DNA of 61,544 nucleotides, taken from the NCBI GenBank assembly GCA_014874265.1, contig JACWAM010000069.1:1-61544 (forward strand), in the 5' to 3' direction. Positions 38,064 through 50,191 of the stretch are shown here, piece by piece. Below the pieces are notes generated by a model that saw nothing but the letters and a program-made list of their open reading frames with translations, did no database searches and had not been told where the DNA came from. Position numbers and translations under genes: made by a program. How positions within the stretch are numbered: the first letter of the stretch is position 1; each line of letters starts with the position of its first letter. Origin of the DNA: Thermoleophilia bacterium (lineage in GTDB: Bacteria; Actinomycetota; Thermoleophilia; BMS3ABIN01).

Positions 38064-39098
38064 CTAACAGATCCGTGGCAGTTGTTCGCCCACGGGCATC
38101 CGGATGATCCTCAAGCCGCCCAGGACGGTGCGGGCAAAAACCCGAAAAGGGCCAGAGAACCCGGCTCCGGCGGCGGGATCAACCACCCGGCCGATAATCG
38201 CCGCTTCGGCGCCCAGGGGGTGGCTCCGCATCGCCGCCAGAACGGAACCGGCGTCATCCTCGGGAACGAAGGCCACGAGCTTTCCCTCATTGGCCAGGAG
38301 CAACGGATCAAGGCCAAACAGCTCGCAGGCGGCGCGCACTGACGGTTTCACCGGCAGCGTTTCTTCTTCGATTTCGATTGCCACCCCTGAGGCGGCGGCG
38401 ATTTCATTTAACGCCGCCGCCAGCCCGCCCCGGGTCGGGTCGCGCATCGCATGCACGCGGACGGAGGCCGCCAGCATCTCCCGGACGAGGCTGTTTAGCG
38501 GGGCACAATCACTTTTTAACATTGAATCAAATTCGAGCCCCTGCCGGCAGCTGAGGATGGCGACGCCGTGGTCTCCCAGGGTGCCGCTTAGGATGACGGC
38601 GTCCCCCGGACGGGCGCCGCGGCCGCTTGGGCTGACGCCCTCAGGAATCAGGCCGATGCCGCTGGTGGTGATAAAGACACCGTCGGCGGCCCCTCTTTCG
38701 ACGACCTTGGTATCGCCTGTCACTACCTCGACTTTTGCTTCGCCGGCAGTTGCCCGCATTGATTCCGTTATCAGCTTGAGCGTGTGGAGCGGGAGTCCTT
38801 CCTCAATGACAACGCCAAGAGCGATGTAGAGTGGAGTCGCGCCCATCACCGCCAGGTCGTTGACCGTACCGGTGACCGACAGGCGGCCGATATCTCCACC
38901 GGGGAAAAAAAGAGGAGAGACTACGTGCCCGTCGATGGTAAAGGCCAGCCGGCCTTGCACTTCCAGGCAGGCGGCGTCGTCCAACCGGTTCAGGATATTA
39001 TTTGCGAGCGCGCTGCTGAAAACTGATTCGACCAGTTCCCTGCCGAGCCGGCCGCCGCTGCCATGCGCCATCTGCACTGTTTCCGTATCATGCGTCAT
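38064..39098 (-). CDS. hypE: Hydrogenase maturation carbamoyl dehydratase HypE
   Basis: MAHGSGG, GGDIGRL, RDPTRGG, terminal LPRIC. Confidence 0.97.
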   Translation of the reverse strand: MTHDTETVQMAHGSGGRLGRELVESVFSSALANNILNRLDDAACLEVQGRLAFTIDGHVVSPLFFPGGDIGRLSVTGTVNDLAVMGATPLYIALGVVIEEGLPLHTLKLITESMRATAGEAKVEVVTGDTKVVERGAADGVFITTSGIGLIPEGVSPSGRGARPGDAVILSGTLGDHGVAILSCRQGLEFDSMLKSDCAPLNSLVREMLAASVRVHAMRDPTRGGLAAALNEIAAASGVAIEIEEETLPVKPSVRAACELFGLDPLLLANEGKLVAFVPEDDAGSVLAAMRSHPLGAEAAIIGRVVDPAAGAGFSGPFRVFARTVLGGLRIIRMPVGEQLPRIC

Positions 39099-39140
39099 TG
39101 TTTGAAAAACGGCGTCATGCTCTTATTAATGACAACTTAA

Positions 39141-40247
39141 TCAATCCTGAAACTCATACTGGTAGTAAGCGGCGCAGGTCCCCTCTGAGGAGACCATGCA
39201 CGGACCCACCGGGTGATCGGGGGTGCACGTGCGGGCGAAGCGGCGGCAATCGGGCGGGATTTTCTGACCGGTGAGGATCGCCCCGCAGATGCATCCGGCC
39301 GGCTCGCGCGAGTAGGACGCATCGACTGCAAAGACCCTGGCGGCGTCATGAGCGGCAAACTCTTCGCGAATCGTCAGTCCGCTTGCCGGAATCGTGCCGA
39401 GGCCGCGCCAGCCGGCGTCACAGGGGGCAAATACGGAATTCATCATCTCAAGCGCTGCGGGGTTGCCGCCGGGTCTGACGCCGCGGGCGTACTCAACCTC
39501 GACCCGGCAATCTCCGCTGTCCAGCTGGTCAAGGATCATGTTAAGGGATTGCAAAATATCAACCGTCTCGAATCCGGAAATGACACAGGGGATTCCCCGC
39601 TCCGCCAGCGGCCGGTATGGATCGGCTCCAATAATGGCCGAGACATGACCGGGGCAGAGAAAGGCGTCAACGGCCAGCCCGGGCATGCGGCAGAGGGCGG
39701 AGAGCGCCGGCGGCACCAGCTTGTGGGCGCTGTAAACAAAAAAATTGCTGGCGCCAGACTGCCTGGCCGCGGCGATCGCCGCGGCCACCGTCGGCGCCGT
39801 GGTTTCGAAGCCGACGCCGAAAAAAATCACCTTGCAGTCAGGGTTCTCCCTGGCCAGGCGGAGGGCGTCCAGCGTCGAGTAAACGATCTCGACCCGCGCC
39901 CCCCGGGCGCGGGCTCCTCCGAGGCCCATTCGCGTGCCCGGCACCTTGAGCATGTCGCCAAAACTGGCGGCGATGACGCCGGGCAGCAAAGACATCTCAA
40001 TAAAGCTGTCAATATCGTAATTGGAGGTGACGCAAACCGGGCAGCCCGGCCCTGAGATTAATCTGAGCCAGGCCGGCGACGCCTGCCTGATTCCGTGCCG
40101 GGAGATCGCCATCGTGTGCGTGCCGCAAACTTCCATGATCCGTACCGGCCTTTCCGGCCGGCGGTGAAGACGATCAAGCAGTCTTCCGGCGGGGCCCGAG
40201 GCTCTGAATTCGTCCAGGTAGGATAAAACCGGAAGATTATTCATCAT
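39141..40247 (-). CDS. hypD: Hydrogenase maturation protein HypD
   Basis: MEVCGTHT, GPGCPVCV, GFETT, GPCMVSSEGTC. Confidence 0.96.
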   Translation of the reverse strand: MMNNLPVLSYLDEFRASGPAGRLLDRLHRRPERPVRIMEVCGTHTMAISRHGIRQASPAWLRLISGPGCPVCVTSNYDIDSFIEMSLLPGVIAASFGDMLKVPGTRMGLGGARARGARVEIVYSTLDALRLARENPDCKVIFFGVGFETTAPTVAAAIAAARQSGASNFFVYSAHKLVPPALSALCRMPGLAVDAFLCPGHVSAIIGADPYRPLAERGIPCVISGFETVDILQSLNMILDQLDSGDCRVEVEYARGVRPGGNPAALEMMNSVFAPCDAGWRGLGTIPASGLTIREEFAAHDAARVFAVDASYSREPAGCICGAILTGQKIPPDCRRFARTCTPDHPVGPCMVSSEGTCAAYYQYEFQD

Positions 40248-40533
40248 CAGCCGCCGGCGTTTCCTTGAGACCCAAATCGCCATCTTCAGGGCCGGGTCCG
40301 GAGAGCCCGGGCCGGCCGCCTGGCGGCGCCAACTCCTCAAATAGCAGGAGCGTTTCCAGTGCTTCTTTTTTGTCAATCATACTGATGGCAAATCCGGCGT
40401 GAAGCAGCACATAGTCACCGGTCACCGCTTCCGGCAGAAGGACAATCGAGGCCTGTTTGCGCAAGCCTCCGATCTCAACGATCGCCTGCTGGCCGTCGGT
40501 TTCAATTATTTTAGCGGGAACAGCCAGGCACAT
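40237..40533 (-). CDS. hypC: Hydrogenase chaperone HypC
   Basis: MCLAVP start with GGAGGA SD; GDYVLLHAGFAI. Confidence 0.95.
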   Translation of the reverse strand: MCLAVPAKIIETDGQQAIVEIGGLRKQASIVLLPEAVTGDYVLLHAGFAISMIDKKEALETLLLFEELAPPGGRPGLSGPGPEDGDLGLKETPAADDE

Positions 40534-40534
40534 C

Positions 40535-43090
40535 TTAAAATCCTCCATCAGGTCCCGGGGATGATAAGGTCTTTTGTAAATCTTCCTGAGAGCCGGCCGC
40601 ATCAATATTTCCCGTTTTTTGATTTGATTTCAGATTCAGGGCCAGCGCCGCCTGGCCAAACGAAAGGCCGCCGTCACCCGCGGGAAGCTGCCGCTGGCAA
40701 AGCGGTTTCAGTCCTTGCTCTGTCAAGCCCCGGTCCACGAGCGCCAGCAGCAGGCGGTTCTGCCAGACGCCGCCGCTGAAGGCCACCATTCCTGAGCCGC
40801 AAAACTCCGCGGCGTCCAGGCAGGTGGCCACAATCGCCGCCGCCAGGCCCAAATGAAACCGGAGCGCCACGACTCCGGCGGTGACGCCCGCGGCAATATC
40901 ATCAATCATCGCCGCTACCGCCGGCGCCGGATTAACCTGCCAGGGCATGATATCTTTCTGTAGCAGAAACTGGTAACCGCCGGCCGCATGAGCGCCGGAT
41001 TCAAGCTCCTTCCTGGCCACTGTTTCCAGCTCCATCGGAGCCTGTGCCTCATACGTAACGGTTGATCGCAGTAATGCAATCGCCGCCACCGCGTCAAACA
41101 GGCGGCCGCAGCTGGAAGTTGGGTAGCAGTTTAACCCTGTTTCCATCTGTTTGATGATCAGCTCTTCATTGATGCGGGAGACGCCGAGGCGCCGGGCAAT
41201 AAAATCAGTCCATGCGGGAGCAAAAGTCCGGGTGAGAGCCAGCGCCGTGCGCCACGGACCGCGGACGCATGCGTCTCCCCCCGGCAGTGGAAAGTAAGTC
41301 AGGTGGGCGGTCCGTTTAAAACCGTCGCTGAGGGTCCCCGTAAAAAATTCGCCTCCCCAGACGGCGCCGTCGTCGCCCAGGCCGGTGCCGTCCAGGGCAA
41401 CCCCGACGGCCGGCCCAGAAACTCCGTGCTCCGCCAGGCAGGAAGCGATGTGGGCGCGGTGGTGCTGTACGGTCAGGACAGTCTTGCCGGATTCGAGGCT
41501 GCGCTCGCGCGCGTAAGCCGTGGAAACGTAGCCGGGATGGCGGTCGCAGATAAATCTTTCGGCCCGGGTGCGGAAAAGAGTCTCGTAAAGTTCCGCCGTC
41601 CGCTGATAATGGACCGCCGTCGCCAGGTTTTCCAGGTTGCCGATATGTTGTGACACAAACGCGTCTTCGCCTCTGGTCAGGCAGAAGGAGCTCTTCAGGT
41701 CTCCGCCGGCCGCCAGCAGCGGTTCTGGGCGCCGGGGCCGGGCGGGGCCCGGCGCGTGCGGCAACGCCGGCTGCTCCGGGCGCGGCGAGAAAGGTGTCCT
41801 CGCGGCAGGCGGAGACAGCCTGATCGGCAGCGGGGCGTATCCCCGGGCCCGTCTGATCATCATTGGCAGATCCCGGTCGTCAAGCGCCACGACGCTGTCG
41901 TCATATGTTGATAATATACCACGGTTGTGAAGAAGAAACAGATCGGCGACGCCGGCCAGCCGCGCGAGCGCCGCTTCATTGCTGCCACAAATCGGCTCCC
42001 CGGTTACATTGCCGCTCGTCATTACGAGAGGCGCTCTAATCTCAGCCATAAGCAGAAAATGAAGCGGCGTATACGGAAGCATCACGCCCAGTCGGTCAAG
42101 GCCGGGTGTGACTTCCCCGGCGACGCTGCCGCCGTCGCGGTCAAGCAGCACGATCGGCCGCTCGGGGGAAGTAAGCAACCACTTTGCCGCCGGGGATATC
42201 CTGCAGGTCAAAGCCGCTTCCGCCAGGGAGGGCATCATCATCGCAAAAGGCTTGTCTGGCCGGTGCTTTCGCTTCCGGAGCAATTGCACCGCCGGTGCGC
42301 TCTCAGCCAGGCAGGCCAGCTGAAAGCCGCCGAGGCTTTTAAGGGCGACAATTTTGCCTGCCGCCAGCGCCGCCGCCGCTTCGCGCACGGGATCGGCGGC
42401 TGCCAGCGGTGAGCCGTCAGGGCCGGTGAGCCACAGGGAAGGCCCGCAGTCAGGGCAGGCATTCGGCTCCGCATGAAAGCGCCTGTTGGCCGGATCGTCA
42501 TATTCATCGCGGCAGGCGGGACACATCTCAAATTTATTCATGGACGTCAAGTTACGGTCGTAGGGCAGGCCGGCGATAATGGTGAATCTGGGACCGCAAT
42601 TCGTGCAATTGATAAAAGGGTAGCGGTAACGGCGATCGCCGGCGTCGAATAATTCCGCCTGACAGTCACCACAGGTACAGCTGTCGGCGCCTACCAATCC
42701 CTCCGGACCGCCGGCGCCATCCGAGGCGGTGATCTGGAAATCATCGTAACCGGCCGCTTCCGCGGTGACGACTTTAATGGCAGTAATTACGGCCCGGGGC
42801 GGCGGTGATTTTTGCAGGGCCCGGATGAAGGAATCAATCCCGGCACCCGGGCCTTCAACATTAATCCTGACGCCGGCGGCGGAGTTGAGCACGCGGCCGG
42901 AAAGGCCCCGGGATACCGCCTCCCGGAAAACAAAGGGCCGGAAACCGACTCCCTGAACAACACCCACAAGCTCGATATCAACTCGCGAGACCCCGGTTCC
43001 CTTTACCGGCGCAGTCATCAATTCAGGGCCGGCGCCCGAAATTTGCCGTTTTTTCAATCGATGCTCGCCGCTGTCCGCCGTTGCTGTCAT
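40535..43090 (-). CDS. hypF: Carbamoyltransferase HypF
   Basis: GVVQGVGFRPF, zinc fingers (CTNCGPR, CPAC, CPDCGP), QHHRAH, LDGTGLG, GDGGLSFGQ. Confidence 0.97.
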   Translation of the reverse strand: MTATADSGEHRLKKRQISGAGPELMTAPVKGTGVSRVDIELVGVVQGVGFRPFVFREAVSRGLSGRVLNSAAGVRINVEGPGAGIDSFIRALQKSPPPRAVITAIKVVTAEAAGYDDFQITASDGAGGPEGLVGADSCTCGDCQAELFDAGDRRYRYPFINCTNCGPRFTIIAGLPYDRNLTSMNKFEMCPACRDEYDDPANRRFHAEPNACPDCGPSLWLTGPDGSPLAAADPVREAAAALAAGKIVALKSLGGFQLACLAESAPAVQLLRKRKHRPDKPFAMMMPSLAEAALTCRISPAAKWLLTSPERPIVLLDRDGGSVAGEVTPGLDRLGVMLPYTPLHFLLMAEIRAPLVMTSGNVTGEPICGSNEAALARLAGVADLFLLHNRGILSTYDDSVVALDDRDLPMMIRRARGYAPLPIRLSPPAARTPFSPRPEQPALPHAPGPARPRRPEPLLAAGGDLKSSFCLTRGEDAFVSQHIGNLENLATAVHYQRTAELYETLFRTRAERFICDRHPGYVSTAYARERSLESGKTVLTVQHHRAHIASCLAEHGVSGPAVGVALDGTGLGDDGAVWGGEFFTGTLSDGFKRTAHLTYFPLPGGDACVRGPWRTALALTRTFAPAWTDFIARRLGVSRINEELIIKQMETGLNCYPTSSCGRLFDAVAAIALLRSTVTYEAQAPMELETVARKELESGAHAAGGYQFLLQKDIMPWQVNPAPAVAAMIDDIAAGVTAGVVALRFHLGLAAAIVATCLDAAEFCGSGMVAFSGGVWQNRLLLALVDRGLTEQGLKPLCQRQLPAGDGGLSFGQAALALNLKSNQKTGNIDAAGSQEDLQKTLSSPGPDGGF

Positions 43091-43110
43091 TTCCTGGAAC
43101 CGTCAGCCCG

Positions 43111-43779
43111 TCAGTCGGCTGCTGGGGCGGCCCGGTTGGCGGCAGTGGCTCCGGTCAGCCACTCACCCCATCTGGCTACTCCGCTATCTTCCTTACAGGA
43201 AAGCTCAAGGATGGGAGCGGCCGGGTTGAGCGTTGTGACTACCTGCCGGAACCGCGGCAGGTCAAAATCGCAGTAGGGAAGCAAATCAATCTTATTCAAA
43301 AGGACCAGGTCCACCTGCCTGAACATGAGCGGATATTTATGCGGCTTGTCGTCGCCTTCGGCAATGCTGGCGATCATCACCCTGGCCGTCTCTCCCAGGT
43401 CAAATTCAGCGGGACAGACCAGGTTGCCGACGTTTTCAATCACGATCAGGTCCAGGAGGTCGAGATCAAGGTAGTTCAGGGCGGAGGTGATCATCAATGC
43501 CGTTAAATGGCAGGAGCCGCCGGTATTGATCTGGAGCGCCGTGACACCCATCGCTTCGATGATCAGGGAATCGACCTCGGAAGCGATGTCGCCTTCGATC
43601 ACCGCCATTTTCAGCTCCGGCGCCCGCTCGATGGCCTTGATGATGGCGCTGGTCTTGCCGGCGCCGGGGGATGCCATCAGGTTGACCATAAAGACGCCAT
43701 GGCGCCGCAGCCGCTCCCGGTTTTTACCGGCAGCGGAGGCGTTGCTGGCCAGTATATTTTTATTGACCTCAATTCGCAT
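43111..43779 (-). CDS. hypB: Nickel-insertion GTPase HypB (short form; alternative start 43866)
   Basis: SPGAGKTS, NTGGSCHL, ENVGNLVCPA, EGDDKPHKYP, NKID. Confidence 0.95.
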   Translation of the reverse strand: MRIEVNKNILASNASAAGKNRERLRRHGVFMVNLMASPGAGKTSAIIKAIERAPELKMAVIEGDIASEVDSLIIEAMGVTALQINTGGSCHLTALMITSALNYLDLDLLDLIVIENVGNLVCPAEFDLGETARVMIASIAEGDDKPHKYPLMFRQVDLVLLNKIDLLPYCDFDLPRFRQVVTTLNPAAPILELSCKEDSGVARWGEWLTGATAANRAAPAAD

Positions 43780-43931
43780 GCTTTCCGACTGCCTTCCGGT
43801 CCCGCCACGGCGATATCTGTTCAAATCCCGCGCAGACCTGTTTAAATCGGTAAATCGATGGCTCATGAATCGCCGGACTGGTTTTTGACAAAAGCTGCAA
43901 AACGCGCACGTGAAACTTTATCCGGCGTTTT

Positions 43932-44273
43932 TTAATCCACCTCAATGCTTTCAACAAACATTTCCTGTCCCTGCTTGATATCAAACATCGGTGAGCCGCA
44001 GTCGGGGCAGGCATAAAAGGCGTGACGCGGCTCGAACCGGCTGCCGCATTCCAGACAGACCGCCTTTGCCGGCAGATTGATAAAATTGAGCAGCGCGCCT
44101 TCGGCGACCGTACCCCGGGAAAGCTCGCCAAAATAAAACTCAATCGATTGCCCGGAAAAAGTTGATAGTTCTCCCAGGATGATGTTGATTGACCCGACGC
44201 GGGCGGCTCCCGCTCTGGTGGCCTCGTCCTGAACGATCGCGATGATATTCTCGGTGACGGAGTACTCGTGCAT
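43932..44273 (-). CDS. hypA: Nickel metallochaperone HypA
   Basis: MHE start, CLEC and CPDC zinc sites. Confidence 0.96.
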   Translation of the reverse strand: MHEYSVTENIIAIVQDEATRAGAARVGSINIILGELSTFSGQSIEFYFGELSRGTVAEGALLNFINLPAKAVCLECGSRFEPRHAFYACPDCGSPMFDIKQGQEMFVESIEVD

Positions 44274-44281
44274 GGACGGAT

Positions 44282-44827
44282 TTACCGGACGGCAAGACTC
44301 AGCCGGCGCTCGGGGGTTAGGCCTGCGTCAATTATCAAATCAATAGTAATATTGCATACACGTGTCAAACACAAACGCACTTTTTTTGACATTGCTTCAT
44401 CTTGCGGGTCATCTTTGCCTGGCTGGACGCCGATGATCGTCACCGGCGGGCGGGTGCCCCGGCGCCTGGCAGTTTTCAGCGCGTCCATGAGCGCATCATC
44501 ATGCAGGATGATGCTGCTCTTGGACAAGGTGTCTATTTCATCGGCGTTAAACATGAAGATGCTTCCCGGTTTTGAGCCGGACTGAACCGCGGCAATGACA
44601 ACGGCCTGATCCGCCGCCCCCAGCAGCGCGAGCAATGACAAACCGGCGCCGGCTGTGTCGACCACAGAGACGCCGGGGGGAAAGATGTACTCTTCGTTAA
44701 GCTTCTTGACCGCCTGTACGCACAAGCCGGCGCCGCCGGCGCCCAGGACCAAGAATCTTTCCACCGTCCGGTCCCCGTCTCTGCCCCAAAAACCTGGCTC
44801 ATCAAAAGGATCGTGGAAGATCATCAT
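44282..44827 (-). CDS. Degenerate hydrogenase maturation protease-like protein
   Basis: HupD/HyaD-like layout (VLG.., VVD, GSKPGSIF, LHD, IIGVQP), but the GNxxxxD[DE]G segment is deleted and vDA is AA. Confidence 0.7.
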   Translation of the reverse strand: MMIFHDPFDEPGFWGRDGDRTVERFLVLGAGGAGLCVQAVKKLNEEYIFPPGVSVVDTAGAGLSLLALLGAADQAVVIAAVQSGSKPGSIFMFNADEIDTLSKSSIILHDDALMDALKTARRRGTRPPVTIIGVQPGKDDPQDEAMSKKVRLCLTRVCNITIDLIIDAGLTPERRLSLAVR

Positions 44828-44867: not shown

Positions 44868-45401
44868 TCATCCGCTACGCCTCCTTTGTTTGTGCCAGCA
44901 TCTGATTTCTTCGAGAACCAGCGCCTGAACCCTCCCGGCGGCAGCGGCCACCGCCGGCGTCAGCTGCCTGTCGTTCGGCCGGACGTCGCCGACCTGGATC
45001 CCGAAGATAATTACCTCCGGGCAGGCCCCCCGCAGCCGGGCGGTTGTCAGCAGGTAACCGACGCCCATGCCATGGATGTTGTTTGAGCGAAGGCCGGTAA
45101 CCCCCGCCTCATCCGGATGAAACCGGAAGATGTCTCCCGGCTGGGCGCCGGCGGCGATGGCGTCGACGACTATGACCAGCCTTGACTTGAGGAAGTAACG
45201 AACGTTGGCCATGCTGGCGGCGCCGCCAATAATAAATTCTACATCTCTGTTAATATCGCCGGCCTTGAGGTTCTCGACCACTTCAACGCCAACGCCGTCA
45301 TCTCCCATAAAGATGTTGCCGAAGCCGATAACGGCCACCAGGGACGACGTTTCTTGCGGTGCCCGCCGGACGCAGCTCCGGTCTGGGGCGGCGCCGGTCA
45401 C
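44868..45401 (-). CDS. Hydrogenase maturation protease (HyaD/HupD family)
   Basis: GFGNIFMGDDGVG, VVDAI, NIHG, FGIQV; GTGA overlap with the cytochrome b stop. Confidence 0.92.
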   Translation of the reverse strand: MTGAAPDRSCVRRAPQETSSLVAVIGFGNIFMGDDGVGVEVVENLKAGDINRDVEFIIGGAASMANVRYFLKSRLVIVVDAIAAGAQPGDIFRFHPDEAGVTGLRSNNIHGMGVGYLLTTARLRGACPEVIIFGIQVGDVRPNDRQLTPAVAAAAGRVQALVLEEIRCWHKQRRRSG

Positions 45402-46048
45402 GCCCGGCTGTCTTTCTCCGGTTTTTCGCGGCCGACTTCTTTCCAGAGGAACATCAGGGGAACCTCCCAGATGACTTCCGCAAATACCAGATAGACATGC
45501 ACGGCGACCGAAATGATGAAGATCCACATGATCCAGTAATGGATCGTGGTCATGGCGGCGAGGCCGCCGAAGAAATAAGTGACGGGCTGGAAAAACGATT
45601 TCGTCGGCTCCCAGATGGCGGCGCCGGAAATCCCAGCCAGAATGCCCAGCAGGATCCAGAACAGGTAGGTTGCCTTCTGCAGCGGATTGAATTTCATCTG
45701 CTGCGGATAGTCCTTGCGGAGGAAGAGGTAATACTGGATTGTCCTGAGTGCCTGATGGCCCGATCCCCTATGAAACCAGAACCAGTGGAAGTCAGGATAG
45801 CGGCGGCGTTTTCCAACCGCCGCGGAGCCGCCGCCGGCAAAGGCCCAGTAAATTCTGACTACTCCATTGAGGAGAAACACCCACATAAAGATGAAGTGCA
45901 GGTTTCGATTGATATTCATGGCGCCGCCGTAATAAGGCCGCCAGATGTAAAATCCGGTGGCGATCAGCACGAACAGGGACACCAGGTGGACACCGTGCAT
46001 GATCACCGCCGGCAGCGGATGCTCCTGTCTTGTCGGTGGAACCTTCAT
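45398..46048 (-). CDS. Ni/Fe-hydrogenase b-type cytochrome subunit
   Basis: Heme-ligand His in MHGVHL, LHF, IHY, VHVY; FNPLQK motif; 4 TMs. Confidence 0.92.
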   Translation of the reverse strand: MKVPPTRQEHPLPAVIMHGVHLVSLFVLIATGFYIWRPYYGGAMNINRNLHFIFMWVFLLNGVVRIYWAFAGGGSAAVGKRRRYPDFHWFWFHRGSGHQALRTIQYYLFLRKDYPQQMKFNPLQKATYLFWILLGILAGISGAAIWEPTKSFFQPVTYFFGGLAAMTTIHYWIMWIFIISVAVHVYLVFAEVIWEVPLMFLWKEVGREKPEKDSRA

Positions 46049-46051
46049 CGC

Positions 46052-47680
46052 TTACCTGACCTTGAATTTTAGGACCCTGTTTGATTCCGGTTCAATCACG
46101 TGAACCGCGCACGCCATTCATGGGTCGAAAGTGTGGACTACTCTCAGGATCTCCAGCGGTTTTGCGGGATCCGCCACCGGCGTACCTACCAGGGTTTCCT
46201 CAACGGGACCGCGGACTCCCTTGTCGTCACGCGGCGACAGATTCCAGTTGGATGGCGGCACCGCGGCGTAAGCGTCCGTCTTGCCGTCTTTTATTCGGAC
46301 GTAATGGCACAGAGCGCCCCGGGGAGCATCCCAGCCGCCGACACCGGTGCCGCTGCCGTTCAGATCGATTTCCCGAAATACCTGGTTGTTTCCCTTGCCG
46401 ATATTTGTCAGAAGCTCATCGGCCCAGCCAACCGCATTGTCCGCGTTTATTTTTGCTTTCAGCACCCGGGCGGCGATCCGGCCCAGATTTGACATCAGGA
46501 TCTCAGGCTTGCCGGCGGCGCCGATCTGCGCCAGCGTGCTGTCAACCAGCGATTTGACGTCGGCGCTTCCGGACGCATACGCAACCAGCATCTCTGCCAG
46601 CGGTCCCACTTCCATCGGTCGGTCCTGGTCCGTGAGCCGGACGGCCTGGGTCCAGTCGTACTTTCCATCGGGAAGCTGATCGCCCTCCAGCGGCGGCAAG
46701 GCGGTGAAATCAATCGGTTCCTGGCCGGAGTCGAGCGGATGCTTGCCGGCGCCGACCGAGTCATCAAACCACGAATGTTTGGTATACCGCCGGGTCATGC
46801 CGGGATCGACCTTCTGCACCGCGAGCTTGCTGTCAAACAGAGCCCCCCGGGGGAATAGCCGGTCGTAAGGATCCTGGCTCGGCGCGTCAAGTACGCCCCA
46901 GGTCAGGTAATTGCCCACGCCCTTGCCCGTCTGCGCCAGGTCAATATAGTAGGGCGCAAGCGCCAGCAGGTCGGGGACCATCACCGTGTTGACAAAATCC
47001 TGCACCTCTTGCATTCGCGCCTTGTAGAACATGATCTCGTCGTAGGCGGGCAGCTGCGTGACGCCGCCGGGGATCATATGATGGATCATCGGGTAGCGGC
47101 CGCCCAGGATGCTGTTGGCCTCATTGGCTTTGGCCTGGGCGTCGATTGCCTGCAGGTAATGCGCCGTCAGCTCCAGGTTGAGGTCGGGCGGCAGCTTGTA
47201 TCCGGGGTGGTCCCAGTACATGTTGGCAAAAGGCCCGAGCTGTCCGGACTGGATGACCGCCTTTACCCGGTCCTGCACCGCCATCAGCGACGGCGTCGTC
47301 GGCTTGGCGTTGAGGGCGTCGGTGACGTTGACATAATCGAAGGCATTCAGTATATAAAACCAGAGGATGTGGTCGTAGCCGATCTGGGCTGCTTCGGTCA
47401 TGTTGCGGATCAGCCTGGCGTTATCATCCACCTTCTCGACACCCAGCGCCCGCTCCACCGCCTGCACCGAATTAATCGCGTGCGGATTCGGACAGACACC
47501 GCAGATGCGCTGGGCAAACTGCCAGACGCTGCGGGCGTCCCGGTTTTTCATGAAGATTTCAAAACCGCGAAAGAGAGTGGAGGTATTCCAGGCGTCCGTG
47601 ACCTTGCCGCCTTCCACCTGGCACGTGATGCGCAGGTGGCCTTCAATCCTGGTAATCGGGTCGATGACGACTTTGGTCAT
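46052..47680 (-). CDS. hysA: [NiFeSe]-hydrogenase large subunit (542 aa; UGA at 46120-46118 read as Sec521), group 1a-like
   Basis: DPITRIEGH; L1 QRICGVCP; reading through UGA gives FDP-U-MACAVH plus a 15-aa tail to TAA at 46054-46052; SECIS-like hairpin follows. Confidence 0.93.
46088..46107 (-). promoter_or_regulatory. Bacterial SECIS element
   Basis: CGGUUCA-CGUGAU-UGAACCG 7-bp stem; apical loop begins 18 nt after UGA with G at loop position 2. Confidence 0.8.
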
Positions 47681-48861
47681 TGGCTGCCTCCCTTGCTGGA
47701 TTTATCTGCTTTTTCCGTCTCAGCTAAACTTGGTTGGTCCACTGGTCCCTGTTCCTGGGAAAGCGGCCCTCCCTTTCCCATGCGACCCCTGGCGGTCTGG
47801 ACAATCGCATGGGCGGCGATGCCCACCGCCGTGGCGCCGCCGAGAACTTCGCCGATCGCCACCGGGGAGACGTCTCCCGGGATTCTGATCCCCGGCTCCT
47901 TGCTGTAAAACGGCGTTAGCTTGTCCCAGAAGCCAGGCTCGGAGCACCCGATGCACGGTCCCGCCTTGACCGGCCAGCTTGTATCCCCATTCCATCTGTT
48001 TACGGGGCAGGGCGCATAGGTTACCGGCCCCTTACATCCTACTTTATACAGACACCAGCGTTTGCGGGAACCTTCGTCGCCGAACTGCTCGACAAACTCA
48101 CCATTGTCAAAATGGCCGCGGCGTTCGCAATTGTCATGGATCGTCTGGCTGAACAGGAATGTGGGCCGGCCGATGCCGTCCAGTTCCGGCAGCTTTCCGT
48201 TGACAAGGATGTAGACCAGGATGGCAATCGTGTCTTCGGCTTGACCCGGGCAGCGCGGCGAATTGATGACCACTGCGTCCGGGATGCCGCCTTTGCCGCG
48301 AAGGTAGTCGCGAACGCCCTGGGCGCCGGTGGGATTTGGAGCCGCTGCCTGGATATTGCCGTAGCAGGCGCAGCTGCCAATGCAGATCGTGCCCTTGGCT
48401 TTCCTGTAGGTATCGCGGACAATATCCATCGACGTGCGCCCGTGGACGGTCATGGCGCCAGGGATTTTCACGGCGATGGCGCCTTCGATAATGTAATAAA
48501 AATCACCGGAGTTAACCGTGTCATCAAAGCTCTTTTCCGCCTGGTCGCCGGCGGGAGCCATGACTGCTTCGTGGTAGTTAAGAGAAATCTGCTGCAGGAT
48601 CAACTGGGCTGGATCGGGCTTGCGCGCTTGAAGCAGGTTGACAGAGCACCCGAGACATTCCTGAAACAGCGACCAGACCACTTGCGGCCGCCGCGCCAGC
48701 GTCTCCAGCGCATCGGCCACCTGCGGCACCCCCATCGGGCCGGAAAGGCCGATCACAGACGCAAGCAAGCCGCAGAATTTCAAAAAATCGCGGCGGGAAA
48801 GTCCGGGAAACAGGGGCGCCTCTTCATCGGGTGAGTGATTGTGATTATCAGCCAAGACCAT
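47677..48861 (-). CDS. Hydrogenase small subunit with Tat signal and C-terminal TM anchor
   Basis: GGGAGG SD before ATG 48861; SRRDFLK Tat motif; ECLGCS, GSCAC, PRCPG, HDNC, CLYKVGCKGP, CIGCSEP. Confidence 0.95.
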   Translation of the reverse strand: MVLADNHNHSPDEEAPLFPGLSRRDFLKFCGLLASVIGLSGPMGVPQVADALETLARRPQVVWSLFQECLGCSVNLLQARKPDPAQLILQQISLNYHEAVMAPAGDQAEKSFDDTVNSGDFYYIIEGAIAVKIPGAMTVHGRTSMDIVRDTYRKAKGTICIGSCACYGNIQAAAPNPTGAQGVRDYLRGKGGIPDAVVINSPRCPGQAEDTIAILVYILVNGKLPELDGIGRPTFLFSQTIHDNCERRGHFDNGEFVEQFGDEGSRKRWCLYKVGCKGPVTYAPCPVNRWNGDTSWPVKAGPCIGCSEPGFWDKLTPFYSKEPGIRIPGDVSPVAIGEVLGGATAVGIAAHAIVQTARGRMGKGGPLSQEQGPVDQPSLAETEKADKSSKGGSQ

Positions 48862-48996
48862 TCCGCTTGCCTCCCAGTTAATTGGCAAAAAATCTAACCG
48901 ATTCTTCCGGACCGGTCTGACGACCGCAACCGCAAAGCGTCTTGCCGAAAAGGACTGCCAGACCAAAAATACGGCGGCCTGAAGCAGAATTAGCTT

Positions 48997-49026
48997 ATAA
49001 TATAATCATTCGTCTAAATTTGTAAA
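48997..49026 (-). promoter_or_regulatory. Putative sigma70 promoter of the hydrogenase operon
   Basis: TTTACA (49026-49021) then TATATT (16-nt spacer) or TATTAT (18-nt spacer). Confidence 0.45.
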
Positions 49027-49208
49027 CTTCGCCGCTAATTTCAATCACTCAGGAATGCCCGCCATCCCTTTGTCTCGCTCCGGACGGCCCTGAGGCGAAT
49101 CGTTTCAACCGCTTGGCCAGCGGTAATGTTCGCAAGTTAGGTTCTTGCTGCCAAAGGGAAATCATTGCTTAAAGTCTTTTTGACAGAAAATGCCAAAAAG
49201 ATTTGCAT

Positions 49209-49238
49209 TTGACAAGATTGATTCGCAATTTCTATAGT
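49209..49238 (+). promoter_or_regulatory. sigma70 promoter of the rodZ-pgsA-cinA-thpR-recA cluster
   Basis: TTGACA, 18 nt, TATAGT. Confidence 0.6.
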
Positions 49239-49390
49239 GCTAGTTTTATATCTGTTTCAGAAAAAAATGCTGTAAAATAAGCGATCTTTAGCCTGCCGGC
49301 GGCAATGGCTGGCTCATAAACAATAAGAGAGAACAAGAGAGTATTCTGCCAGAAGGTCGGAAACGGGGCGATCTCCTGCCAGGGAGGGAC

Positions 49391-50191
49391 ATGTTTGAAA
49401 TCGGGACTACATTACGGGATGCGAGAGTACGGTCAAATATTTCGCTGCAGCAGGCCGAGGAAGATACGAAGATCAGGATCAAGTACATCCAGGCGATGGA
49501 AAATGAGGATTTTAATCAGCTTCCCGGTGATACCTACGCCAAGGGCTTTTTAAGGACTTATGCGGAGTATCTCGGACTTGATTTTCAGATCTTGCTGGAC
49601 GAATTCAATGAGCGATTCGGCGACGGGGAATACCGGGAGCATGTTATTCAACCGCCGCGGACGGCAAGACCCAAGGAGCCACACAAGCGCAAGAACTACG
49701 TGTTTGTCGCAATTCTGGCGGTGGCCATCATCGCGGTGCTTGCCTACCTCGGATGGGGCAATTCATCAAGTGAGAAACCGGCGCTGGTGACTTCAACGAC
49801 CGCCTCGACGGGAGCGGACGCGCAAACCCAGGCGGCGCCCGCCGGAATCGGCGCTAGCCAGACCGGGACGGAAACCGCGCCGGCTGAAACGGCGACTGCC
49901 GAAACGCAGCCCGGCGCATTTCAGAGCATCGTGTTTAAGTCCAGCTCAAGCAATAACTGGGTTGAAGTCTATCAGGACCGCGCTATGAAGCAGGTTATCT
50001 GGGGCGGCACGCTGGCCGCGGGCGACAGCAAGTCGCTGGGAAGCGCTGATCTCCAGTCGGCCAATGCTGTCTGGCTCGACCTGGGCAGCGTCAAGGGGCT
50101 GGTGATCACCGTGAACGGGCAGGATCAGCAGATCAGCCGCGGAGGCTTCTATAAAGTGACGCCCAGCGGGCTTACTCCTGCGGGGGGATAG
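49391..50191 (+). CDS. rodZ: RodZ-like HTH/TM protein
   Basis: IGTTLRDAR, TKIRIKYIQAME, YAKGFLRTYAEYLGLD, one TM, DUF4115-like C-terminus. Confidence 0.88.
   Translation: MFEIGTTLRDARVRSNISLQQAEEDTKIRIKYIQAMENEDFNQLPGDTYAKGFLRTYAEYLGLDFQILLDEFNERFGDGEYREHVIQPPRTARPKEPHKRKNYVFVAILAVAIIAVLAYLGWGNSSSEKPALVTSTTASTGADAQTQAAPAGIGASQTGTETAPAETATAETQPGAFQSIVFKSSSSNNWVEVYQDRAMKQVIWGGTLAAGDSKSLGSADLQSANAVWLDLGSVKGLVITVNGQDQQISRGGFYKVTPSGLTPAGG

Follow-up and report, generated by a model that had tools for sequence, protein, structure and literature searches.

The window considered here, a stretch of 61,544 nucleotides (nt) that spans contig JACWAM010000069.1 of the Thermoleophilia bacterium assembly GCA_014874265.1, carries on its minus strand a hydrogenase locus with genes for a small subunit, a large subunit, a b-type cytochrome, two maturation endopeptidases and the Hyp maturation proteins (Table 1). 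The large-subunit gene contains a single in-frame TGA, at which open reading frame (ORF) callers end it. We describe the sequence anatomy of this locus, its recoding signals, the selenocysteine (Sec) machinery of the host genome, and the conservation and co-occurrence of these features. Judged from the DNA, the gene very probably encodes an intact large subunit of a [NiFeSe] uptake hydrogenase in which UGA521 is decoded as Sec. The host is an uncultured anaerobic actinobacterium, represented by a 126-contig metagenome-type assembly of 97.4% completeness and 0.58% contamination. Contigs of its relatives, from sediment and groundwater, are labelled Candidatus Aquicultor, 'Thermoleophilia bacterium', 'Actinomycetes bacterium' and similar metagenome-assembled genomes (MAGs).

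A first-pass annotation, made from the letters alone, had noticed that the large-subunit ORF seems to stop at HTFDP. The table-11 ORF indeed runs from 47680 to 46118, and the TGA at 46120-46118 follows CAC ACT TTC GAC CCA on the minus strand. Beyond it the same frame continues with ATG GCG TGC GCG GTT CAC and with a tail that opens with GTG ATT GAA CCG GAA TCA AAC AGG and closes with GTC CTA AAA TTC AAG GTC AGG, before a TAA (46054-46052) located 3 nt (gcg) ahead of the cytochrome b ATG at 46048. With TGA translated as U, the product counts 542 residues and ends in HTFDP-U-MACAVH-VIEPESNRVLKFKVR. The proposals that read-through would place the UGA at a Ni-ligating Cys, and that a 15-residue tail would follow and end 3 nt short of cytochrome b, were both borne out by alignment and translation, and the rest of what that annotation stated about the letters themselves is likewise correct. 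U521 and C524 line up with Cys543 and Cys546 of the [NiFe] hydrogenase of Desulfovibrio fructosovorans (1FRF), and the in-frame UGA occupies the first Cys of DPCxxCxxH. At the other end of the protein, R58-ICGVCPNP-H67 matches the RxCGxCxxxH motif. The C-terminal extension is conserved among orthologues and in 1FRF (VIEPETNEILKFKV), and a maturation endopeptidase is expected to remove its 15 residues by cleavage after His527. This group 1b enzyme is the best match of solved structure, with an end-to-end alignment of 434 bits over residues 4-541. It has the L1 and L2 motifs too, together with a C-terminal tail, VHVIEPETNEILKFKV, that is almost identical, but has Cys as terminal Ni ligand and belongs to a different clade in the tree described below.

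Table 1. Features of the hydrogenase locus in the window; functions are predicted from the evidence in the last column.
Feature	Position	Strand	Evidence
Full large subunit gene, 542 codons including predicted Sec521, plus TAA	46052..47680	-	PF00374 487 bits, 1 in-frame TGA
L1 N-terminal Ni-Fe ligand motif R58-I-C60-G-V-C63-P-N-P-H67	47480..47509	-	translation
L2 C-terminal Ni-Fe ligand motif D519-P-U521-M-A-C524-A-V-H527	46100..46126	-	translation
UGA codon, residue 521, read as predicted selenocysteine	46118..46120	-	same codon in relatives
Putative SECIS hairpin C14GGUUCA20 / U27GAACCG33	46088..46107	-	fold, wobble invariance, compensatory variants, criteria test
C-terminal extension VIEPESNRVLKFKVR, 15 residues	46055..46099	-	then TAA 46052-46054
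Small subunit gene	47677..48861	-	TIGR00391 320.5 bits (cut-off 179.5)
b-type cytochrome, membrane anchor and electron acceptor	45398..46048	-	TIGR02125 E 2.5e-29, 102 bits, under equivalog cut-off 121.5
Hydrogenase maturation endopeptidase	44868..45527	-	TIGR00072 106 bits (cut-off 47.45)
Second, more divergent endopeptidase paralogue	44282..44827	-	TIGR00072 71 bits
Maturation gene block hypA-hypE	38064..44273	-	Pfam matches
hypA	44273-43932	-	Pfam HypA
hypB	43866-43111	-	Pfam CobW/HypB
hypF	43090-40535	-	Pfam HypF domains
hypC	about 40605-40237	-	Pfam HupF_HypC
hypD	40376-39141	-	Pfam HypD
hypE	39098-38064	-	Pfam AIRS/AIRS_C

Conservation of the TGA was followed through three sets of genomes. 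A homologue was found in 24 of 61 related genomes, and in 23 of these (49-100% identity) the gene holds exactly one in-frame TGA, at this codon, and continues through xxCxxH and the conserved tail to a stop; the remaining homologue (43% identity) reads DPCLACSIH. A scan of named genomes gave a similar pattern and added L061, a gene with TGC at 40% identity, while a sample of 401 genomes of the phylum contributed more Sec-type genes, down to about 37-41% identity. Codon 521 is TGA in all 46 distinct TGA-type relatives, TGC or TGT being confined to homologues of 52% identity or less. The alternation of Cys and UGA that the first-pass annotation had suggested looking for is therefore present at exactly this codon among the more distant homologues. 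Conversely, a search for orthologues that end at the UGA yielded none that do so functionally: in all relatives the frame beyond it is conserved at the protein level, keeps xxCxxH and the tail, and ends just before cytochrome b.

Public protein records nevertheless stop short of the codon, as had been anticipated for annotation pipelines. The best 120 matches among 5.8 billion database proteins all end one codon before the UGA, 119 of them at F/YDP and one at FDA. In a library clustered at 50% identity a single truncated sequence stands for the whole clade, and among full-length Cys proteins the nearest has 52% identity. Two side observations concern individual records. A 68% identical large subunit (L058, JARRRH010000457.1), with the same UGA and hairpin core and a different tail after GAA, comes from a bin labelled Deltaproteobacteria bacterium, a label of another phylum that suggests horizontal transfer or mis-binning. 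Six sequences (P0045, P0050, P0053, P0054, P0056 and P0063) begin with an additional 40-60 residues, in which Thr, Ser, Pro and Ala abound, ahead of the conserved VVIDPxTRIEGH; their start codons have probably been assigned too far upstream, to sites within the 3' end of the gene for the small subunit.

The host genome is equipped to insert Sec. All four components named as a check by the first-pass annotation were recovered, selA (C100:15399-16760, 587 bits) and selB (C100:16906-18786, 376 bits) by profile search. The SelB product has GTPase, beta-barrel, SelB-wing_2 and SelB-wing_3 domains. Adjacent to these two genes lies a 96-nt tRNA-Sec with anticodon UCA (C100:18892-18987), the sole tRNA with this anticodon in the genome. 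The selD gene (C109:27000-27932; L009:1501-2433) has an in-frame UGA of its own, in SG-U-ACK, and so does fdhA (C31:5729-7717), in CART-U-HAP. The loop of the hairpin behind the UGA starts at nt 21 in selD (GUC), at nt 22 in fdhA (GGUCU) and at nt 21 in the hydrogenase gene; the genome thus contains at least three selenoprotein genes with uniformly spaced Sec insertion sequence (SECIS) elements. Elsewhere TGA is an ordinary stop, terminating 394 of the 1067 ORFs of at least 300 codons (37%), which excludes a genome-wide reassignment. All 23 genomes that encode a Sec-type large subunit have selA, compared with 266 of 401 in the sample of the phylum as a whole (P = 5.7e-5), and the genome that carries the nearest Cys-type gene (G064) is without selA. 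The same count (66%) runs counter to the earlier remark that selenoproteins are uncommon in Actinomycetota.

Immediately downstream of the UGA lies the predicted SECIS element, which the first-pass annotation had drawn as CGGUUCA/UGAACCG around the loop CGUGAU, at bacterial SECIS spacing. Folding returns this hairpin as the minimum-free-energy (MFE) element of the region. Numbered from the U of UGA, its core pairs G15GUUCA20 with U27GAACC32 (46106-46089) around the loop C21GUGAU26 (46100-46095), so that the core stem is separated from the UGA by 11 nt and the loop by 17 nt. Some relatives have lost the outer C14-G33 pair. The minimal SECIS of Escherichia coli fdhF is a 17-nt upper stem-loop located 11 nt after the UGA. 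Our element resembles it in the 11-nt gap, in a stem-loop of about 17-18 nt, in a 5'-GGUU...ACC-3' stem and in the GU of the loop; it differs in its 6-nt loop CGUGAU and in the absence of the bulged U, and its recognition by SelB is putative.

The published model of bacterial SECIS (bSECIS) elements calls for an apical loop of 3-9 nt closed by a stem no shorter than 4 bp, a G at loop position 1 or 2 (the next base being G or U in most cases), a UGA-loop spacing of 16-37 nt and an MFE of -7.5 kcal/mol or lower (PMC13188914). The window hairpin, with a 6-nt loop, 7 bp, G at loop position 2, a spacing of 17 nt and -9.5 kcal/mol, falls within all four limits. Applied strictly, these limits retain 37 of 46 Sec-type sequences versus 2 of 18 Cys-type sequences (Fisher P = 4e-7), and the spacing of those retained is 17-18 nt in 36 of the 37 Sec-type sequences and 33-36 nt in both Cys-type ones. 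Eight of the nine Sec-type sequences that fall outside keep the core hairpin and have lost the outer C-G pair (in L058 the outer two pairs), which leaves the energy too weak. The ninth (L046/L062, a Candidatus Aquicultor sp. MAG) has CUUGAU for CGUGAU at 21-26 nt after the UGA, a change of Val to Leu; its loop is therefore without the consensus G at either of its opening two positions, the sole such case among the 46 sequences.

Codon usage offers a view of the hairpin that does not depend on folding energies. In a codon alignment of 31 distinct orthologues with 125 degenerate columns in which the amino acid is invariant, the codon itself is invariant in five columns only, and four of these five lie inside the hairpin: V526 GTT, H527 CAC, I529 ATT and E530 GAA (hypergeometric P = 2.6e-6). 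GTT and ATT are minority codons in the large-subunit gene (5 of 46 Val and 6 of 28 Ile codons), and the codons that flank the core vary freely (GCG/GCC/GCT, TGC/TGT, CCG/CCC/CCA). This pattern indicates that the hairpin is under selection as RNA. Every close orthologue repeats the TGA together with the hairpin, which is far more than chance would produce. A hairpin is present behind the UGA in every Sec-type sequence compared, in L092 as a different 8-bp hairpin with the loop GGUCU. Cys-type homologues, with different synonymous codons, are devoid of the hairpin; among them are controls with the same or nearly the same peptide, namely L061 (C-MACAVHV) and P0124 (C-VACAVHVVEP, with the codons GCC GTC CAT GTA GTC GAA CCG). 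Two of the seven Cys-type genes of gut Eggerthellaceae (L082 and L083) have, 14-28 nt downstream of the TGC and thus where the SECIS would lie, a hairpin of 5 bp, CGGUG-CACAU-CACCG, with no loop G, which may be what is left of an earlier SECIS or a product of chance.

Among distant lineages, both identity and compensated change are found. The identical 18-nt core stands behind the UGA in lineages of about 40% protein identity (L089-L091, L093, L068 and L069), in which neighbouring wobble positions differ. We asked whether the 3' end had recently been transferred from one lineage to another, which would produce this identity, and rejected the idea because wobble positions outside the core differ freely among them. 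The six core pairs are 15-32, 16-31, 17-30, 18-29, 19-28 and 20-27. In Anaerosomatales the element reads UGUCCA-CGUGG-UGGACA, the first pair being U-A in place of G-C and the fourth C-G in place of U-A. In another lineage it reads GGUGCA-CGUGG-UGCACC, with G-C as the fourth pair, and one member has a G-U wobble pair. Compensatory change that keeps the pairing is thus seen at two of the six stem positions, in two distant lineages.

Several observations weigh against the decoding of UGA521 as Sec, or limit what can be drawn from the hairpin. The 66-nt region as a whole folds no better than shuffled sequence (z = -0.28), and folding energy over the 45 nt that follow the codon fails to separate Sec-type from Cys-type genes (MFE means of -12.7 and -11.8 kcal/mol, P = 0.35). 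The reason for the latter is that Cys-type genes come from G+C-rich genomes; as such thermodynamic tests are uninformative, we relied on the position-specific SECIS criteria and on wobble conservation. The stem is invariant within the clade of the window itself, and covariation therefore comes from distant lineages only, with the 3' arm shifted by one base. Moreover, the peptide V-H-V-I-E-P fixes three of the six pairs (G16-C31, U17-R30 and C19-G28) and the G-U of the loop through first and second codon positions, which limits the independent evidence to the bases at wobble positions (G15, U18 and U27) and, within the loop, to C21 and G24. With so much of the hairpin forced by the peptide, its identity between deep lineages is no proof of common descent. 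An Rfam scan of 4.5 kb (45000-49500) at a permissive threshold returned nothing relevant, its one chance match to a small RNA having E = 6.9. Finally, the selenium in the protein is itself a prediction from nucleotide sequence.

The same UGA is found in a cultured relative. By exact look-up, the Anaerosomatales protein is WP_267192337.1/MCL4078932.1 of Parvivirga hydrogeniphila. The gene cluster of this organism was assigned to HydDB group 1i, no other hydrogenase was reported, it grows lithotrophically on H2, and Sec is unmentioned (PMC9686372). In the DNA of the isolate, the called gene ends in FDP-TGA and the next 26 codons, IGCAVH-VVDTVTGKDVTLSTSPMGVM, lead up to the start of cytochrome b; the compensated hairpin of Anaerosomatales lies inside these 26 codons. 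Cytochrome b is separated from the large subunit, as annotated, by 82 nt (L099:4591-4675, JAMCCO010000001.1) that correspond to a Sec-IGCAVH tail with its SECIS, and WP_267192337.1 is therefore truncated. Gene order is the same as in the window, and the cytochrome b of Parvivirga matches PF01292. Since this organism lives on H2 and its sole reported hydrogenase has the UGA, it would depend on a UGA-containing large subunit. Its growth is the nearest thing available to physiological support for Sec decoding.

Three other explanations of the TGA can be set against these data. Were it a genuine stop, the product would be a protein of 520 residues without two of its Ni ligands, from a pseudogene or as a non-catalytic remnant. 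Every database record is annotated in this way and the local fold energy is ordinary, but the 22 codons past the UGA are conserved at the protein level in 46 of 46 distinct relatives and end just before cytochrome b, the operon and its hyp genes are intact, a profile search of the host genome found no PF00374 match above cut-off other than this large subunit, and the cultured carrier grows on H2; we regard a genuine stop as extremely unlikely. An error that turned TGC or TGT into TGA could be suspected in a metagenome-type assembly of 126 contigs. However, the same TGA recurs in dozens of assemblies that were made independently in separate studies, one of them the genome of a cultured isolate, and the probability of such an error is negligible.

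Read-through that brings in another residue, be it a near-cognate Trp or Cys, Cys carried by tRNA(Sec) under selenium limitation, or the outcome of a lineage-wide reassignment of UGA, would also restore the frame, for which read-through alone is enough. In other organisms the Sec pathway can deliver Cys when selenium is scarce. Against this, TGA ends 37% of long ORFs, the only tRNA with a UCA anticodon is tRNA-Sec, near-cognate decoding has no use for a conserved hairpin at SECIS spacing, selA is found in 23 of 23 carrier genomes, and Trp cannot ligate Ni. We consider this explanation very unlikely, and the decoding of UGA521 as Sec remains the reading adopted here.

Assignment to the [NiFeSe] enzymes, as proposed by the first-pass annotation, is supported in this sense by the sequence evidence; the protein does not belong to the classical periplasmic HysAB type. 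The HysAB enzymes of Desulfovibrio vulgaris Hildenborough and Desulfomicrobium baculatum (PDB 2WPN and 1CC1; NF045518) are alike in having Sec at the first Cys of DPCxxCxxH (UxxC), a UGA with a SECIS inside the ORF, export of a heterodimer by the twin-arginine translocation (Tat) pathway and maturation by an endopeptidase. They differ in being soluble, linked to cytochrome c3 and hosted by sulfate reducers, whereas the window encodes a cytochrome b subunit and a small-subunit anchor in an actinobacterium. Their structures match the window protein distantly, at 255-272 bits. The HysAB models also separate the two: the large subunit scores 358.8 bits against 780 for NF045518 and the small subunit 210 against 470 for NF045520, a HysA-type control (P0160) scoring 835 bits on NF045518. 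On NF033181 (NiFeSe_hydrog equivalog) the large subunit reaches 485.4 bits, below the cut-off of 600. That model also takes the Cys-type sequences P0316 and P0122 and is hence not Sec-specific; the shortfall is consistent with the NCBI records that end at the UGA, supposing that the Prokaryotic Genome Annotation Pipeline uses this model.

A maximum-likelihood tree of 66 sequences places the window protein in a clade with full support, the members of which are 17 Sec-type sequences and a single Cys-type one on a long branch. The latter (P0123, SFDPCMGCAVH, from the representative library) may be a reversion from Sec to Cys or a placement artefact, its composition being flagged as deviant. The window clade is part of a three-way fork (92% support in the Shimodaira-Hasegawa-like approximate likelihood ratio test), the internal order of which is not settled, with a group of Anaerosomatales (Sec) and Eggerthellaceae (Cys) and with the Cys-type pair L067/P0122. 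By exact look-up, the Cys-type members of that group belong to Arabiibacter, Gordonibacter, Paraeggerthella, Eggerthella and Hugonella. The HysA-type sequence lies elsewhere, among other actinobacterial Sec-type lineages, and the Sec/Cys state changes at least five times on the tree. Approximately unbiased tests, for groups named after the tree was seen, rejected both a single clade of all Sec-type sequences (P = 4e-52) and a clade of the window group with the HysA-type sequence (P = 2e-11).

By tree position and gene order, the predicted enzyme is not a canonical HysAB and is instead a cytochrome-b-linked relative of HydDB group 1i. This closeness rests on the published assignment of Parvivirga to group 1i (PMC9686372) and is distinct from a call by the HydDB classifier. 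Group 1i, the 'Coriobacteria-type' of Parvivirga hydrogeniphila, Anaerosoma and Eggerthellaceae, shares the order small subunit, large subunit, cytochrome b and protease, and its Anaerosomatales members have the UGA at the same codon with a compensated hairpin; it differs in that identity to the window protein is just 42-47% and in that the gut Eggerthellaceae members have Cys. In the literature, group 1i is described as [NiFe] with no mention of Sec (PMC9686372 among the sources), HydDB lists Sec variants in groups 1a, 3a and 3c only, and a 2026 review regards [NiFeSe] hydrogenases as exclusive to sulfate reducers and methanogens (PMC13188914). Group 4 [NiFe] hydrogenases with an N-terminal Sec have been found in silico (Takano et al., 2026, PMC13582414). 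These resemble the present case in their UGA-truncated large subunits recovered by read-through analysis, in the conserved G of the SECIS apical loop and in the co-occurrence of sel genes; unlike them, the window enzyme is a group 1 uptake enzyme with its predicted Sec in the canonical C-terminal position. Our search of the literature for NiFeSe together with Actinobacteria, Coriobacteriia or Aquicultor found no description of this actinobacterial clade. A [NiFeSe] hydrogenase whose C-terminal motif has UxxC is a well-known kind of feature; what is new is its host lineage, its architecture with a link to cytochrome b and its place next to group 1i.

The remaining genes fit a membrane-bound enzyme. 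The small subunit probably starts at the ATG at 48861, within an ORF open from the TTG at 48966. It carries the twin-arginine signal SRRDFLKF (TIGR01409, 25.4; cut-off 16.7) and ends in a hydrophobic anchor helix, and its stop overlaps the large-subunit ATG in ATGA. In its segment SWPVKAGPCIGC, the Pro presumably marks a [3Fe-4S] medial cluster (residue numbering unconfirmed), such a cluster with Pro being that of standard [NiFe] enzymes; HysB has Cys there. The true start of the first endopeptidase probably lies downstream of 45527, because its match to the hidden Markov model begins at residue 64. With small subunit, large subunit, cytochrome b, proteases and hyp genes all present, the locus is a complete operon, whose membrane-bound product would be an uptake hydrogenase with cytochrome b as the subunit that it reduces.

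From these parts we infer a pathway that covers selenium insertion, processing, export, the direction of catalysis and the quinone acceptor. SelB, with GTP and Sec-tRNA(Sec), would bind GGUUCA-CGUGAU-UGAACC on the operon mRNA through its C-terminal winged-helix domains and would deliver Sec once the UGA has entered the ribosomal A site, translation then going on for 21 codons to the UAA. HypABCDEF would assemble and insert the Ni-Fe(CO)(CN)2 centre on the ligands Cys60, Cys63, Sec521 and Cys524, with Sec521 as terminal Ni ligand and counterpart of D. fructosovorans Cys543, after which an endopeptidase would cut off the tail behind His527. The dimer of large and small subunits would leave the cytoplasm through the Tat signal of the small subunit and be held by the C-terminal helix of that subunit and by cytochrome b, passing electrons from H2 to the quinone pool.

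We also put forward, tentatively and as an idea that may well prove wrong, that the A-V-H-V-I-E-P peptide of group 1 hydrogenases pre-encodes a bacterial SECIS, three wobble bases (G, U and U) and a change between UGY and UGA being enough to switch between Cys and Sec. Sec could then be the default Ni ligand of respiratory uptake hydrogenases in anaerobic Actinomycetota (Aquicultor-like lineages, Anaerosomatales and several others), and the Cys of gut Eggerthellaceae could represent secondary reversions. Such pre-encoding would explain both the recurrence of the same 18-nt element at about 40% protein identity and the repeated Sec/Cys changes on the tree.

[NiFeSe] hydrogenases are prized for their high H2-production activity and their fast recovery from O2. 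The present locus points to a large clade of membrane-bound, cytochrome-b-linked enzymes of this kind in anaerobic Actinomycetota of sediments and groundwater, for which all the public protein records examined break off at the predicted Sec codon, that of a cultured H2 oxidiser among them. Hydrogenase surveys and metabolic reconstructions of these lineages consequently rest on large-subunit records that are without two of the four Ni ligands. Selenium availability is a likely control on H2 oxidation in these habitats, and Parvivirga hydrogeniphila would offer a cultivable system in which to study a [NiFeSe] centre on a quinone-linked chassis.

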